The translations under genes were made by a program, and so were the position numbers. Shown in pieces: positions 17-23,424 of a stretch of DNA of 25,579 nt. The stretch lies in IMG/VR virus record IMGVR_UViG_2531839131_000011. One strand, given 5' to 3'. The stretch comes from a virus (lineage: Duplodnaviria > Heunggongvirae > Uroviricota > Caudoviricetes). Below the pieces are notes generated by a model. That model made no database searches, had not been told where the DNA came from, and worked only from the letters and a program-made list of their open reading frames with translations. The stretch's first letter is position 1. Each line of letters opens with the position of its first letter.

Positions 17-961
17 ACGGTAAATCAGGCTTCTGGCGCATTACAGAAAAAACAGAACGGCGCAGATATTCCGGGAAAAGATACCTTCACCAAAAATATT
101 GGGGCCTGTCGCGCATATAGCGCATGGCTGAATATTGGTGGCGATAGTCAGGTCTGGACAACTGCGCAATTTATTTCGTGGCTGGAGAGTCAGGGGGCAT
201 TTAACCATCCTTACTGGATGTGCAAAGGCTCATGGGCTTATGCAAATAATAAGGTCATTACAGATACAGGTTGCGGAAATATTTGTCTTGCAGGTGCTGT
301 GGTGGAAGTTATTGGCACCCGCGGCGCAATGACCATACGCGTTACCACGCCGAGCACGTCCAGCGGTGGCGGAATCACTAACGCTCAATTCACTTATATT
401 AATCATGGTGATGCTTACGCTCCTGGCTGGCGACGAGACTACAACACGAAAAACCAGCAGCCTGCATTTGCTTTAGGGCAAACAGGACGCAGGGTCGCAA
501 ATGATAAAGCTGTTGGCTGGAACTGGAATAGCGGCGTTTATGATGCAGATATCAGTGGCGCATCGACATTAATCCTCCACTTTAATATGAATGCGGGGAG
601 TTGCCCTGCTGTACAGTTCCGCGTGAATTACAGAAATGGCGGTATCTTTTATCGTTCAGCGCGTGATGGTTATGGCTTTGAAGCTAACTGGTCAGAGTTT
701 TACACCACAACACGCAAACCCTCTGCGGGAGATGTTGGTGCATATACGCAGGCAGAAGGTAACTCAAGGTTTATTACAGGTATTCGCCTTGGCGGTCTGT
801 CATCTGTTCAGACATGGAATGGTCCTGGCTGGTCTGACAGGTCAGGTTATGTCGTTACTGGTTCAGTTAACGGAAACCGTGATGAATTAATTGATATAAC
901 TCAGGCAAGGCCAATTCAGTATTGCATTAATGGAACGTGGTATAACGCGGGGAGTATTTAA
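2..961 (+). CDS. S': S'v: alternative tail-fibre variable C-terminal domain, promoterless cassette (5' end is the gix crossover, no own start)
   Basis: Frame is open from window position 2. Begins [24 protein letters not shown], homologous to the Sc/Sv junction of the minus-strand S. Ends ...YCINGTWYNAGSI, like the S C-terminus ...[12 protein letters not shown]. The ORF-track start at 218 is internal. Confidence 0.75.
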   Translation, partial: LGLQETVNQASGALQKKQNGADIPGKDTFTKNIGACRAYSAWLNIGGDSQVWTTAQFISWLESQGAFNHPYWMCKGSWAYANNKVITDTGCGNICLAGAVVEVIGTRGAMTIRVTTPSTSSGGGITNAQFTYINHGDAYAPGWRRDYNTKNQQPAFALGQTGRRVANDKAVGWNWNSGVYDADISGASTLILHFNMNAGSCPAVQFRVNYRNGGIFYRSARDGYGFEANWSEFYTTTRKPSAGDVGAYTQAEGNSRFITGIRLGGLSSVQTWNGPGWSDRSGYVVTGSVNGNRDELIDITQARPIQYCINGTWYNAGSI

Positions 962-963
962 TT

Positions 964-1497
964 ATGATGCACTTAAAAAATATTACTGCTGGCAACCCTA
1001 AAACAAAAGAGCAATACCAGCTAACAAAGCAATTTAACATCAAATGGCTTTATTCAGATGATGGAAAAAACTGGTATGAGGAACAAAAGAATTTCCAGCC
1101 AGACACTTTGAAAATGGTCTATGACCATAACGGCGTTATTATTTGTATTGAAAAGGATGTTTCAGCAATTAATCCGGAAGGCGCAAGCGTCGTTGAATTA
1201 CCTGATATTACAGCAAATCGCCGGGCTGATATTTCGGGGAAATGGTTGTTCAAAGATGGCGTAGTGATAAAGCGAACTTATACCGAGGAAGAGCAGAGGC
1301 AACAAGCGGAAAATGAAAAGCAAAGCCTGTTGCAACTTGTCAGGGATAAAACCCAGCTATGGGACTCACAGCTACGGCTGGGCATCATTTCCGACGAGAA
1401 TAAACAAAAATTAACCGAGTGGATGCTCTATGCGCAGAAAGTCGAATCTACAGACCCCTCCAGCCTGCCAGTAACGTTTCCCGAACAACCAGAATGA
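964..1497 (+). CDS. U': U': alternative tail-fibre assembly chaperone (silent orientation)
   Basis: 177 aa, paralogous to the minus-strand U (MMHLKNI.AGN.KT.EQY.LTK... in both). Starts 2 nt after the S'v stop. Confidence 0.8.
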   Translation: MMHLKNITAGNPKTKEQYQLTKQFNIKWLYSDDGKNWYEEQKNFQPDTLKMVYDHNGVIICIEKDVSAINPEGASVVELPDITANRRADISGKWLFKDGVVIKRTYTEEEQRQQAENEKQSLLQLVRDKTQLWDSQLRLGIISDENKQKLTEWMLYAQKVESTDPSSLPVTFPEQPE

Positions 1498-1500
1498 GAG

Positions 1501-1527
1501 AAGGCCCGATATTGGGCCTTAATTTTT
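1501..1527 (+). terminator. Intrinsic terminator between the convergent U' and U genes
   Basis: aaggccc-gatatt-gggcctt hairpin followed by aattttt on the plus strand. On the minus strand the hairpin has no U tract. Confidence 0.5.
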
Positions 1528-2053
1528 ACTCAGGCTTTTGTGGCCATTCGGGATTTGCTGTATCCACACGGCTGACCAGAACGCTGTAGCGTTCCCATGA
1601 CTCCAGTCGTGTGCGTTCCTCATCCGTCGCCATATTCAGCCTGACAGCGCGTTCCAGTGGCTGAATAACGCTTTCAGCTTCAGAAAGCAACGCGCCCTTT
1701 TGTGATTCGGCTTGTTGTTGCTGTTCGTCTGCCGTATAAATCCGTTTAACTACAGCTCCATCCTTAAACATCCACTTTCCTGAATCATCAGCGCGGCGGT
1801 TGGCTGTTATATCGGGAACCTCAACGACGCTAAAACCTTCAGGGTTAAGCGTGGAGGCATCTTTAGTGATGGCGACAATAATATTATTTGCATCGTAAAC
1901 AATCTTTATTGTGTCTGGCTGAAAGTTTTTCACTTCCTCATACCAGTTTTTTTCGTCCTCAGAGTAAAGCCAGATGACTCCGTGCTTCTTTGTTAACTCA
2001 TACTGCTCCAGTGTTTTAGCGTTACCTGCTTTTATGTTCTTTAAGTGCATCAT
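1526..2053 (-). CDS. U: U: tail-fibre assembly chaperone (expressed orientation)
   Basis: 175 aa. ATG at 2053 is 2 nt after the S stop at 2055-2057. Tfa-like sequence. Confidence 0.85.
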
Positions 2054-2054
2054 A

Positions 2055-3647
2055 TTAAACGCTCGCTACATTATACCAAGTGCCATTTATATACTTTTGA
2101 ACTGGTCTGTAATAAACCCCCGCTATATTATCGGCAGAATTGGACCCTGTATCCTGAACATTAATACCAGATAATACATGACCTGACGGGCACTGGAAAT
2201 TCCATGTTTGCCAGTTGTTCACACCATAATATTGCTGTGAGCCAAGCCGAACATCTTTTACATATCGGGAATCTAAATTACTGAAATCAGACGGTAATAT
2301 CCGCCCAGTGATACTTATTTCTTTTTTGCTCTGTAACGTACCGTTCTGAAAGCGGAACACATGCACACCATTAGCATAAGCATCCAGCACCCCATCACCA
2401 TTTTGTTTAAACCCAGTATCGTTATCTCCTAAAACTATTGAATTTCCCCCCAGGGCATTAGCCGTTCCAATCCCCAGATTTCCGCTAAAAATGGCATTAA
2501 TACCGAATATTGAGTGAGAACAATAAAACCCTCGCCCATTGTTAAAATCCAGAATGGCTTGTGCGTTCGTGCTTTCTGTCGCGGGATTAGTTGCTCCCCA
2601 CTTATATGTTGTTTGACCGACGGTATAATCCTGAGTTGGAACAATAACCGTTAGCCCTTCTTCAGCAGAAACCCGCACAGGAAAAGCCCTGCCTTCAACG
2701 TAAAAAACGCTGCATACATCATCTTCTTTAAGGCTTGTTACAATGGAGTGGATTGCGCGCTCATTAGTCTGATACGTCGAAAAATAACCTGCCGCATATG
2801 AACCATGATCAGTCCAGCCACCAGGCATTACCATTCCATTGAATTCGCAGTTATTCATTGCGTAATCACCAGTGGCAGATGTGGTCGTTATAATCACTCT
2901 GGAAGCCAGCTCGCCAGTGCTGCCTGTGGAACGCCGGAAAATAACTGGATACCACTTTCCACCAACTGCATTAGACGGCGCATTAAATGCGTACTGCCGC
3001 ATTCCTTTTTTCTTATCCACCTCGCCTTTGCTGTAAACATTAATGTTACTCAGGAAGCGATCCTTATCAGGAATATCCGCGCCGTTCTGGTTTTTTTGTA
3101 ATGCGCCAGAAGCCAGATTTACCGTTTCCTGCAAACCGAGGTTTTGGATAAACAGCGGCTTATTGGGAATATCTGCTCCGTTCCGGTCTTTTGCCAGACG
3201 GGCATTGGCATTATCCATCGCAATTTTCACCGCTTTTGCGGTGGCTGCCAGCGTTTCACTGGGGCTGTCAGTGGCACTGGTTAGCTGAACGAGGCCTTTT
3301 TTGTTCAGGCTGGCATCCCAGATATCCAGATTTTCACGTGCTGTACGCTGTGCTGATGCCCCGGCAATTTTAATTTCGCTGAGGTTATTTTTTATCAGCA
3401 GCGCGTTATTGCTCATAATGGCTTTAATGGACAGTGCAAGCTGGTTTAATTTTGTTTTATCCGGTTGAATACCGGCTTCTTCCAGCGTGTTTAATAACTC
3501 CGCCTGCACAATATTAAACCAGTCCATACCGGGCCATGTGATAGCATTATTCCCGTCACCTTCTGAAAACCAGCGAACGATAGCACTACGCTGGGCGGAT
3601 ACGGGCGGCATGACGGTTACGCCGCTGTCGTTATCAATATAAAACAT
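2055..3647 (-). CDS. S: S: tail fibre protein (constant N-terminal part 3152-3647 fused across gix to variable part 2055-3125)
   Basis: 530 aa. Coiled-coil-like N-terminal part, C-terminal receptor-binding-like domain. The gix site lies in frame within it. Start overlaps the upstream stop (TAATG). Confidence 0.85.
3126..3151. other. gix-like Gin/Hin-family crossover site inside the S gene
   Basis: ttcctgcaaaccgaggttttggataa: two inverted 12-bp half-sites around a central 2 bp, matching the gix/hix consensus as I recall it. In the S frame it encodes FIQNLGLQE. Confidence 0.7.
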
Positions 3648-8895: not shown

Positions 8896-10971
8896 TTACC
8901 AGCCTGTAATGTAGTTATCGCCCGCGTAAATATTCAGCCCCATACCATCCTCGGTGACGCGGGAACTGGTCAGACGTAACCCCTCGCCAAGTTCGACGCG
9001 CAGCGAGGCTTCCGCATTGACTTTTTGTTCCTGCGGTTCCTTATCCGTGACCGTCCATTTCTGATACAGGTCGGTTACAAAACCGCCCAGATACTCCCCG
9101 GCGACACTGCCCAGCGTGGCACCGGCAACCGTACCCAGCGGTCCGGCAAGGCTGCCAACGGCACCGCCGAGCCATGCACCGGCTGTACTGCCAATTGCGC
9201 CTGCTTTTTCATGGGTTGACGCCTGCTCATCCATCAGGACGGGGGCAAGCTGGAGTGCCCCCATTACCGGGCCACCCAGACGTGACAACGCACGACCGGC
9301 ACCTTTCCCCATCCAGCCCAGCGCCCCGGCACCTTTTGTCACAACCCGACCGATCGCACTGCCTGCAAGTTTGTTTCCGATACCGGAAAACCACCCGCCA
9401 GCGGCACGCCCGGCATCAGCCAGCTTTCCGACCGCTCCCGTAACCAGTTGCCCGGCAGCACTGCCTGCAAGCCTGCTCAGAAGACCGGATTTACCGGGTA
9501 AAGGTAATGGTGCAGGCCGTGCCGTTACCGGTACGCCGGGTGGGGGTAATGCCAGAACAGGGCGTGGTGCAGGTAATGCCAGCGGCTGTGGCCCGGACAG
9601 CAATAACGGCTGGCGGGGTAACAGGGGCGTCATGCCTTTGCCTTTCCGGGTGCGACCACCACGGCCACCGCTTCCGTAACCGCCGAACCCGTGAGGCCAG
9701 TTAGTGACAAACACACGCTGAATGCCGATACCCTGCAACAGCGTCTCAGACGTCATGGCATCCGGGACCGGCAGACCTGCCTGCCCACGTTTGCGGTTTC
9801 GCATCCAGCGCCACATACGACGCCCGGTTTTAAACGGATAACTGGCAACCTGCCATGAGGGTTTTGCCACGGCCCAGCCTGCTCTCAGGGCTTTATTGGC
9901 AAGCCAGACAGACACCAGAACAGCAGCCAGTTTTTTCAGGCTGACAATATTCTGGTCAACCCATGCCAGCGCATCTTTACCCGGTTTCAGCCAGCGCCAT
10001 AATTCCTGCGCCGCGATTTTTACCTTTCTGAACGTGGTCAGGAATTTCTGACCAATGTTTTCTGCCAGTGCGTCCAGCTCCCCGGATTTATCCGCCGCAT
10101 CGTGCCAGTTAAGCACCCGGCGCATCTCGTTCTTGATTTCTTCAAAGGGGCCGCTGTTTGCCACCTTCGTGCGAAACTCAAGCAGGTTGCCCTCCATCTG
10201 GGCCATCATCCCGTCCCAGGAGTTCATGGCAGCCGCCTGTGCGCCTTCTGACTGCTCCAGCAGGGTCCGGAATACCGTCAGAATGGCTTTCTTGCCCAGC
10301 TTGCCTTTTTCACCCAGCTTACGGATTTTTTTCTCATCCTTACCCGTTGCATCTGCCAGCACCTTGTAAACGTTGATACCGTAACCGGTCAGCAGGTTGG
10401 CGTCCGCCGCCGTGATTTGCTGGCGGGCAAACATCTGTTTGAACTGTAACGAAGCCCCCTGCGCGGTGGGTAAATCCCAGCCATGCATCGCGCCCTGATT
10501 CTGTAGCATGGTGATGAACTGTTTTACCTGGGCGTCAGTCATGCCAAACGCCGTTGATGTGCGGATTTCCTGCAGAACGCCGCCCAGCCCCCAGGTGGTT
10601 TCTTTTGCGTTCTGCTTCGCCCACGCCATCATGGCCTGTGCTCTGGCCTTATCGCCGTGATACAGCGAGTTCATGGCGATAATCTGCTGCTCACGCTGGG
10701 CGGCGGCACCAATAAACAGTTTATTGGCGGTGTAACCCACGCCAGCGATACCCAGCGCCCCGGCTGACAGCATTCGGAATGTACGGGTTGACAGTGAACC
10801 CATTCTGTCAATGGCACCAGAAACGCGCACAACCTCCATACGCAGGGCACGAAGGGAACTTTGTCCGCTACGGGACAGGGCGTTTATCTGGTTCGAATAC
10901 TCGCGGGAACGCCGGGAAAGATTGCCATTAAGATCAATAATGACAGACGCCTTTAAGCGTTTCCCGGTCAT
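8896..10971 (-). CDS. Tail tape measure protein
   Basis: About 692 aa from ATG 10971 (AGGA 7 nt upstream). N-terminal helical region, Pro-rich repeats, Gly/Ala-rich C-terminal half. The ORF-track start at 11064 adds 31 non-protein-like residues and overlaps a promoter-like motif. Confidence 0.75.
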
Positions 10972-11925: not shown

Positions 11926-13425
11926 TTACAGAATGAACTGAACTTGTGCCGCGAAAATGCGGAACTGGTTAATCAGATTCGGGCCGCACAGCACATCAAG
12001 ACGGTCTTTGTCGTCCTTGTTACGTGCCACATACAGCTCCTCTTTGAACGTGTCGAAATCCTCGACCAGTCCGGCGTTTTCCCATTCTTCAAACAGTGCC
12101 AGCAGCTCCGTTTTGATCACGGATGGCGTCACCACGGCCTGACCGGTGGCAAAGCGGGTGCCATCACTTGCCAGCTTGTGGTTCGGGAATTTCTGCGTGA
12201 TGCGGGTTCGCAGCGAATAACGCAGATAACTCAGCGTGGCGATGGTATTCACGTTCAGATAAGACGGATCGCTGTCACCATACTTGTTCGTGCGGTACAT
12301 CGTGATCATGCGTTCAATCTGCATTTCACCACCATCATTCACGTTAAACGTGGAGATGCCGTCAAACAGCAGCGCATTACGTTCTGACCAGGTGAAACGA
12401 TCCCCCACCGCAGGCGGCATTCTTCCGGGCAACGTCAGCGTCTGGAGTGGACGCGCCGGGTCGATGGAAAGCGCCTGGCTGGCAACGGCACACAGGGTGG
12501 CGGCGTACAGATATGACGGTTCCGGTGCATCGGCAATCCCCATACAGGAAATCAGATGGTCATTACGTCTGACACCAAACGTGGAAATATCCCCATACGT
12601 GCCGGACAGCACTGTCACGGCAAAGCCATCAGCCTGACTGACCGGTCCCCAGCGTTCCTGCAATTCAGTGCGTAACAGATTCAGGTTCGGTTCATCGGTA
12701 TAGGGCATCACAATATATTTGTATTGCAGATCGCCCATTCCCGCGATACTTGCGCTGATATCCGGGTTGATGTATTTCCGGGATTCGGCTTTGAATGCCG
12801 TGATAATCCCGTAAGGGGTGGTTTCACCCGCGTAATAGTTCCAGCGCACATCCACGGCAGATAATGCACCCGTAAATTTTGCAGTCAGAACTATATCTGT
12901 AGCGCCGGCATCATCCGGCGTGGTTGAGAGCAATACTGCCTTCACCGGCAAATCAGGATGACCGTTGATTCGGTCAGTCAGCAGGCCAGCCAGCTTCGAT
13001 CCCTTGGTACCTGCTGCGACGGATACCGCCAGTCGCTGACCGGCAATGTAAGTCACAAGCGAGCCGTTTTCGGTTGCCGTTCCTGACAGTGTGATCATAC
13101 CGACAGTAGTTTTAGAGATAGTATTACCGGGGTTTTTCGCCTGCGGAATACACCACAGCTCCGCCACGCGGTTAGCTTTCAGGAATGCATCTGCCATCAG
13201 TGCCAGCATGGAACCCTGACCAAACGCCGCACTGGCCTGTGAGCCGGAACGGATACGGACAGGCACGTCTGGTGCCGCACTGGCCCCCTTATTGCTTTGC
13301 CCGAACATCAGCACGCGCTGACGGGGGGCCGGTGTTCCGCTGACGGCATTACTGTTATCAAATTCGATATACGCCAGAGGAACGCGAACATCTGGCGGGA
13401 TCGCGTTAAATGAAATATCGCTCAT
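11926..13425 (-). CDS. L: Contractile tail sheath protein
   Basis: 499 aa. N-terminus [25 protein letters not shown] is typical of Mu-type sheath proteins. GGAG Shine-Dalgarno. Confidence 0.85.
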
Positions 13426-13431
13426 TTCGAT

Positions 13432-13662
13432 TTACTCCGTTTTTTTCAGCGCAGCGTCGGTATCATCCGCCGTGTTTTCGGTGCTCCCGACTTCAACCAC
13501 ATCAGTGTTTTCGGTGCTCCCGACTTCAACCACATCACCGGCTACAAGGCGACGTATCCAGAAACTGTTACGGGGCTTTTCTTCTCCCTCAGGCGCCAGT
13601 AATTCCATCGTGAGCGGGTCACGGATGGTTTTTCCCTCTGCGGGTTTAATTTTCAGCATCAT
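13432..13662 (-). CDS. Small neck-region protein (Mu gp38-like) carrying an 11-aa tandem duplication
   Basis: 76 aa. Contains DVVEVGSTENT twice, encoded by a perfect 33-bp duplication at 13472-13537. Confidence 0.5.
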   Translation of the reverse strand: MMLKIKPAEGKTIRDPLTMELLAPEGEEKPRNSFWIRRLVAGDVVEVGSTENTDVVEVGSTENTADDTDAALKKTE

Positions 13663-14194
13663 TATCCTTTTCCTGATTCACATTGATATGTGCGGCAAAT
13701 TCCGGGGTTTCGGCCGGGAGTTTCCAGGTCTGCCAGTGACGCTCGTAATCATCCAGCGAATCCATGTCCACCACGGACGGCAGCGGGGTAGTGCCACTCA
13801 ACAGAACGCCGTAAAGCACCACGCCGGCATTGATACGGTTGTCGTCACAAAGATTTCTGACCTGCGTCAGTCTCATCCCGGTGGTCTGGCCAAACGTCTG
13901 ACCGTTAACACCGGCAATCAGTCGCTCCACAATCTGATAAATACCGGGCCGGTTTACCGGTTCCCCGTTCAGCAACTCCGCCACGACAAAAAATGCCCAG
14001 CGACTTTCAACTTCCCGACGCGTACGCCCCTCACCACAGCCCATCCATGCCAGAAATACCGATGGCGGGGCCAGAAAGAGACGGTGTACATCCTCGTTAG
14101 TCCATGTGCCGGTAAGGGGTTCCACCTGCCGCAGGGTTGCCCCAAACAACTCACGAACGCGCGCCAGCAGTGCGGCTTCGGTTTCTTCCAGCAT
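13646..14194 (-). CDS. Tail completion/neck protein (Mu gp37-like)
   Basis: 182 aa. ATGA overlap with the upstream gene. Synteny. Confidence 0.5.
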   Translation of the reverse strand: MLEETEAALLARVRELFGATLRQVEPLTGTWTNEDVHRLFLAPPSVFLAWMGCGEGRTRREVESRWAFFVVAELLNGEPVNRPGIYQIVERLIAGVNGQTFGQTTGMRLTQVRNLCDDNRINAGVVLYGVLLSGTTPLPSVVDMDSLDDYERHWQTWKLPAETPEFAAHINVNQEKDNDAEN

Positions 14195-14619
14195 CAGATA
14201 AACCCCTTCTGTTTTCGTGAAAAAACAGGTGGATCAGACTGAACCTGCACAAGATCCTCTCCCTCCGGAGAGGCTGCCGTCCTGCTTTCCACACCCGGAT
14301 CTGTTTTGCCATCACGTACCTGTTCCAGCCAGCGCACCGTGTCCCTGTAGGCAGCGGTGATCTGCTCGGTGGGTTGTGATTCATTCAGATAAAACCAGGC
14401 CACCACGCAACACTGCCGTTTCAGCAGTGAGGGGACGACGGTAAGCGGCAGAACAAAGCGCGCGGCGAGATAGCCATCAATAAAGGCCGAGGCATCTGCC
14501 AGTGCCTGTTCTGCCACGGCATCATCCGGCTGCCCGTCCGCTGTTTTAGGGCGGGTGAGAATATCCAGCCGCGTACGTGTATAGCGGGCGCACAGGTCAT
14601 TTACCGTCGCGTAATTCAT
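14194..14619 (-). CDS. Head-tail connector/head completion protein (Mu gp36-like)
   Basis: 141 aa. ATGA overlap. Synteny. Confidence 0.5.
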   Translation of the reverse strand: MNYATVNDLCARYTRTRLDILTRPKTADGQPDDAVAEQALADASAFIDGYLAARFVLPLTVVPSLLKRQCCVVAWFYLNESQPTEQITAAYRDTVRWLEQVRDGKTDPGVESRTAASPEGEDLVQVQSDPPVFSRKQKGFI

Positions 14620-23134: not shown

Positions 23135-23424
23135 GAATTACTCCGGTTTACTGCGTTTTCAAGCAGCAGCTCCAGTTGATGGGAAAATGACTGCACCCGC
23201 TGGGACAGCACCCGGATATCACCGGACAGCTCTGCAATTCGCAGGCGCATTTCGTGTACATCTTCTGTGCCGGGGATGCTGGCGTAGCGGGTTTCCATTT
23301 CGGTCATCCGGTTTTCAAGACGCTCCACACGCTCGGTGCTGGCAAAACTACGACGCATCGCCCAGACGGCCCCACCGGCCACAACAGGCAACAGGTAAGG
23401 CCATAACGCTAAAACTGAATCCAT
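23131..23424 (-). CDS. Membrane-anchored coiled-coil protein (Mu gp25-like, candidate releasin for the SAR lysozyme)
   Basis: About 97 aa from ATG 23424 (GGAG Shine-Dalgarno; the ORF-track start is a GTG 18 nt upstream). N-terminal hydrophobic segment LALWPYLLPVVAGGAVWAM, then heptad-like region. Confidence 0.45.
   Translation of the reverse strand: MDSVLALWPYLLPVVAGGAVWAMRRSFASTERVERLENRMTEMETRYASIPGTEDVHEMRLRIAELSGDIRVLSQRVQSFSHQLELLLENAVNRSNS

Follow-up and report, generated by a model that had tools for sequence, protein, structure and literature searches.

An in-frame 33-bp tandem duplication in the gp38 gene of a Mu-like Escherichia coli prophage

The window analysed here, a stretch of viral DNA 25,579 nucleotides long, contains a 33-bp sequence that is present twice, head to tail, inside a small late gene. 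This repeat is very probably a genuine, heritable allele of Mu gp38 (DUF2635) that belongs to one sub-lineage of E. coli Mu-like prophages. It most likely arose once and has been inherited since, and it appears to be tolerated and probably neutral. The duplication is an ordinary polymorphism of a familiar kind and does not represent a new type of element.

The repeat and the gene that carries it

Direct reading of the window gives two identical units, at 13472-13504 and 13505-13537. Tandem Repeats Finder reports a single tract, 13472-13537, with a period of 33, 2.0 copies, 100% matches, 0 indels and a score of 132. By chance, the expected number of perfect period-33 tandem copies in 25.6 kb is about 3e-16. 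The units are in frame within a minus-strand open reading frame (13432-13662, 76 aa), where the residues DVVEVGSTENT are doubled, as residues 43-53 and 54-64. A preliminary description of this DNA had claimed a perfect 33-bp tandem duplication, in frame and doubling 11 residues of a 76-aa protein, and both the direct reading and the open reading frame bear this out. The features discussed in the text are collected in Table 1.

Table 1. Features of the window in and around the duplicated segment
Feature	Position	Strand	Description
gp37/K tail terminator homologue, upstream neighbour	13646..14194	-	PF08873; overlaps the start of gp38
Mu gp38 homologue, 76 aa	13432..13662	-	DUF2635 (PF10948), phrog_208
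Repeat copy 1	13505..13537	-	gene sense TGATGTGGTTGAAGTCGGGAGCACCGAAAACAC; codons D43-N52 plus bases 1 and 2 of T53
Repeat copy 2	13472..13504	-	gene-sense sequence as in copy 1; codons D54-N63 plus bases 1 and 2 of T64
Poly-A run, A7 in gene sense	13440..13446	-	A6 in Mu and in every single-copy relative whose DNA was examined
Tail sheath L/gp39 homologue, downstream neighbour	11926..13425	-	PF04984, PF17482

The 66 bp are flanked by c at 13471 and by c at 13538, compared with a at 13504 and g at 13505 at the ends of the unit. Since the flanking bases do not prolong the repeat, its phase is unique and the junction has zero microhomology. The repeat unit has the same flanks in single-copy relatives as in the window. 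A microhomology-mediated tandem duplication was considered and is unsupported, as there is no short identity between the start of the unit and the bases just after it, or between its end and the bases just before it.

A scan of positions 13300-13800 for promoters and terminators found none above shuffle expectation. On the opposite strand, an open reading frame starts at the repeat (13472-14242, +). It has no Pfam match and lies opposite conserved genes, and for these reasons it was treated as spurious.

Judged by its profile score and its operon position, the gene is a homologue of Mu gp38 and a member of DUF2635. The 76-aa protein matches PF10948 over residues 5-48 with 77.4 bits (gathering score 26.6, E = 6.7e-22). 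It also matches phrog_208 (E = 6.2e-22), which is annotated as “unknown function”. Pfam matches to Phage_Mu_Gp36 and Phage_Mu_Gp37 lie upstream of the gene and sheath families lie downstream, and the order gp36-gp37(K)-gp38-L is the order found in Mu (AF083977.1). The late genes from Gp27 to Mom likewise follow the order in Mu. Gene order, the right end and the varied insertion sites described below identify the window, at the level of sequence, as part of a Mu-like (Muvirus-type) transposable prophage.

The closest named counterpart is Mu gp38 itself (Mup38, AAF01116.1), which is labelled “putative sheath terminator protein” in AF083977.1. It occupies the same place between gp37/K and L and has the same conserved N-terminal domain. 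Window positions 13300-13800 are approximately 90% identical to Mu, as they are to D108, PhiR68_1, SfMu and Yersinia Mu-like phages, and the protein is 88% identical to that of Mu outside the inserted 11 residues. Mu has one DVVEVGSTENT (67 aa), a run of six A, a basic PKKRSKSK end and a stop codon that overlaps the start of L (ATGA). The window, in contrast, has two copies, a run of seven A, the end LKKTE and a stop codon 7 nt before the start of L.

In a 2025 cryo-EM study of Mu, gp35, gp38 and gp41 are described as “probably structural” but were not resolved, and the connector was built from gp29, gp36 and gp37 only (PMC11915804). The gene had been introduced in the preliminary description as a small neck-region gene. 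Its position between gp37/K and L agrees with that label, but gp38 is not seen in the virion structure (PMC11915804). A sequence search of the PDB with the gp38 homologue gave no match. Literature searches on DUF2635, Mup38 and Mu gp38 returned nothing relevant, and nothing specific was found on tandem duplications in prophages of the Mu type.

The variable tail and the linked frameshift

The duplication sits exactly where the conserved N-terminal domain of about 50 residues meets the C-terminal tail. A full scan of 1.84 billion representatives found 479 members of the gp38 family. They are 49-127 aa long, and their similarity is limited to query residues ~3-50. After the conserved strand, the tail may be as short as 3 or as long as 75 residues (median 23). 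In the window protein it has 29 residues, and it would have 18 without the duplication. Close relatives scarcely differ in residues 1-47, and vary throughout the part after DVVEV.

Other members of DUF2635 also change length directly after the conserved GDVxEV strand. In P0012, P0016 and P0019, for instance, DVVEV is followed at this same point by unrelated insertions. Short tandem repeats also occur in several tails of the family, for example three APKEEKAA-like units in P0100 and two ERRAK units in P0157. The insertions in these five proteins are of unrelated sequence, mostly diverged or low-complexity, whereas the window has an exact copy that includes the last strand of the domain. Two much longer proteins also match the gp38 query in several separate stretches, ten in P0029 (4104 aa) and six in P0143 (1056 aa). 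They are suspected not to be true relatives but to match the acidic tail through repetitive or low-complexity sequence.

An AlphaFold2 model built from an 84-sequence alignment has medium confidence, with a mean pLDDT of 74. Residues 1-50 are modelled with pLDDT 79-89, and residues 53-68 fall below 50. The model has strands at 2-7, 27-30 and 44-46, the last of them within copy 1, and a helix at 33-41. Copy 1 is thus predicted to still supply the last beta-strand of the domain (DVVEV). Copy 2, the extra 11 residues, is predicted to be disordered (pLDDT < 50) and would simply extend the disordered acidic tail from 18 to 29 residues. Foldseek found no match to the PDB or BFVD at E <= 0.001, and the best PDB matches, which include a weak one to YqbF (2hjq), have E > 1. 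Because these searches were empty, the model gives no functional clue. The position of the duplication at the junction of domain and tail, together with a tail length well inside the range of 3-75 residues, suggests that the duplication is tolerated and probably neutral.

A second change lies further downstream in the same gene. In gene sense, positions 13440-13449 read CTGAAAAAAA, with one extra A in the poly-A run and a C>T substitution immediately before it. Together they change the end of gp38 from AAPKKRSKSK-stop to AALKKTE-stop and separate the stop codon from the sheath ATG, which overlap in Mu. The shorter run of six A is also present in D108, SfMu, E. coli W and other complete E. coli genomes. 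The preliminary description of the duplication did not include this linked +1 A frameshift. Programmed frameshifting on the seven A was considered, and the context is not a canonical slippery heptamer.

In a collection of 15 billion proteins, the exact 76-aa protein is found on 102 contigs, and the same allele, called as 75 aa, on a further 19, all of them named E. coli. The position index of the collection places the 76-aa protein in 106 blocks. Two further forms belong to the same 90% cluster. One is a 65-aa protein, found on two contigs, that is the window protein with one copy and is otherwise identical. The preliminary description had suggested that relatives might vary in copy number, and this protein confirms that they do. 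The other is a 79-aa protein that has two copies and the Mu-type PKKRSKSK end, and it is found on one short contig. The duplication and the frameshift are thus found together on 121 contigs, and each alone on only one or two.

With the 65-aa and 79-aa forms, all four combinations of duplication and frameshift exist. This requires either gain and loss of both the copy and the A, or recombination among alleles. From this natural series of alleles, which differ in copy number (one or two) and in the presence of the basic C-terminus, the tail would seem to be dispensable or very flexible.

The strong association of the two changes might instead be taken as a sign that the duplication is adaptive. 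It could alter the function of gp38, compensate for the loss of the basic KKRSKSK end, or change recognition by host defence. The tail is moreover the fast-evolving part of the gp38 family. However, linkage of this kind is also what common descent predicts, and since the single-change forms P0003 and P0004 both exist, each change can occur without the other. A tail of 29 residues is nothing unusual in this family, and gp38 has no known function, partner or structure. An adaptive duplication is therefore improbable. It is more doubtful still that the duplication and the frameshift jointly remodel the tail under selection, whether through mutual compensation or through changed recognition by host defence or an assembly partner. 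If they did, the small gp38 protein would be a target of diversifying selection.

Relatives, carriers and origin of the allele

The unit is present in a single copy in all 14 of the Mu-family phage records, among them Mu, D108, SfMu and Yersinia Mu-like phages. The preliminary description had proposed a comparison with Mu, D108 and related prophages, and Mu, D108 and all other sequenced relatives examined have one copy. The gp38 gene occurs in 44 of 5,426 complete E. coli genomes, at 51 places, and the two-copy allele is absent from all 5,426. Among the matches listed, those in complete genomes span 267 nt compared with 301 nt in the query, and are thus shorter by 33 + 1 nt.

The closest relatives in complete genomes are the gp38 of the E. 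coli W prophage (WP_000979227.1) and those of 43 other E. coli genomes. Their gp38 stretch is 96-97.3% identical to the window, and over ~23 kb the E. coli W prophage shares with it 96-97.6% identity and the gene order. They differ from the window in having one copy and a run of six A, among the matches listed. Since both the reference phages and these relatives have one copy, the duplication is derived, and is not an ancient repeat whose copies have diverged.

All support for the two-copy allele comes from draft assemblies and from two IMG/VR contigs. Two perfect copies and the run of seven A are found in each of the 15 carrier loci that extend to gp38. Over ~20 kb, 4-272 substitutions (up to 1.4%) separate the carriers from the window. 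These differences are concentrated in mosaic patches, in the baseplate and tape-measure genes, the portal and terminase genes and, in one case, the head genes. Around gp38, the background divergence among carriers is about 0.2%.

The Mu right end (...GCGCCGCTTCA) adjoins a different host sequence in each of four carriers, namely the pykF, melA/adiA, yjf/pspA-like and ato regions. Such varied insertion sites show that the prophage moved while carrying the allele, which is not the same as proof of infectious virions with a duplicated gp38. The duplication would have originated once, in the ancestor of the sub-lineage, through a replication or recombination error without flanking microhomology. 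It would then have been inherited within the sub-lineage ever since, while prophages that carried it kept inserting at new chromosomal sites.

The duplication-specific junction has 0 matches in GTDB species-representative genomes and 0 in JGI metagenomes, and a scan of IMG/VR found only two carrier contigs. A marker of the sub-lineage, the GTA codon at V40, is found in the same two IMG/VR contigs only, and in none of the metagenomes.

The two copies are 100% identical, as might be expected had slippage occurred very recently and in this isolate alone. With a divergence of about 0.2% around gp38, however, only about 0.1 differences are expected in 66 bp, and perfect identity is thus no sign of a private event. 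The duplication is common to prophages at four or more insertion sites that are up to 1.4% apart, and these different sites exclude an origin of all carrier assemblies in one strain. A private event is consequently most implausible. The allele had been called recent in the preliminary description. That word has to be restricted: the event is not confined to this isolate, and the prophages that have it occupy at least four insertion sites and are 4-272 substitutions per 20 kb away.

It is just as hard to regard the repeat as a hypervariable tract of the contingency type, in which copy number often switches. One- and two-copy forms do coexist in the same haplotype background, and another in-frame tandem duplication, of 45 bp, is present in the tape-measure gene of a sister prophage. 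Nevertheless, such a tract is unsupported, because only one or two copies are ever seen and the 15 carriers all read exactly two. Neither the 90% cluster nor the junction scans contain an allele with three or more copies. The secondary structure of the repeat DNA, compared with shuffles, is not unusual either (z = -0.66).

An artefact of assembly or sequencing, with one copy in the real sequence, was also raised in the preliminary description and can practically be dismissed: although the duplication is missing from all the complete (long-read finished) E. coli genomes searched, the same junction, with the same linked marker substitutions, recurs across many independent assemblies, which an artefact cannot explain. 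More than 100 contigs carry the allele, in assemblies that come from different projects and are separated by years, and so do the IMG/VR contigs. The junction is always linked to the haplotype markers V40 GTA, L72 CTG and the run of seven A, which an artefact would not create. In addition, ordinary sequencing reads are longer than a 33-bp tandem copy.

As an allele probably inherited from a single event, the duplication offers a clean case of how a small phage protein can change length, through an in-frame tandem duplication in a disordered tail within a still-mobile prophage. It could also serve to mark one lineage of E. coli Mu-like prophages. Finally, it points to a gap concerning the role and location of Mu gp38 and DUF2635, which is conserved in hundreds of contractile-tailed phage lineages.

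Other variation in the prophage lineage

The tape-measure duplication is an event of the same kind, in a tail gene of the same prophage lineage. It is found in the sister prophage L009 (L009:14097-14195, GCA_044908875.1), where an in-frame duplication gives a protein of 706 aa compared with 691 aa. It differs from the gp38 duplication in the gene affected and in its 45-bp unit, 2.2 copies and 98% identity. It is absent from the window, which is single-copy at the corresponding place (~9513-9566). Tape-measure length sets tail length in other phages. If the same applies here, the duplication in L009 could lengthen the tail slightly.

A smaller difference of in-frame size lies near position 23420, in the early part of the late region. 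Here the window is without 6 nt that are present in all seven of the sister prophages L007-L013.

The sheath protein has 499 aa compared with 495 aa in Mu, with a 4-residue insertion in its N-terminal region (13000-13425, -). Residues ~96-110 are locally diverged, and the Mu counterpart reads GNGTGNAAVGE.

The invertible G segment (218-3647 in the window, ~10543-14100 in L014-L022) is found in both orientations among the assemblies of the lineage. The expressed tail-fibre gene encodes either 488 aa or, in other assemblies, 509 or 530 aa, with 530 aa in the window. In the sister loci, a resolvase (Gin-like) gene lies downstream.
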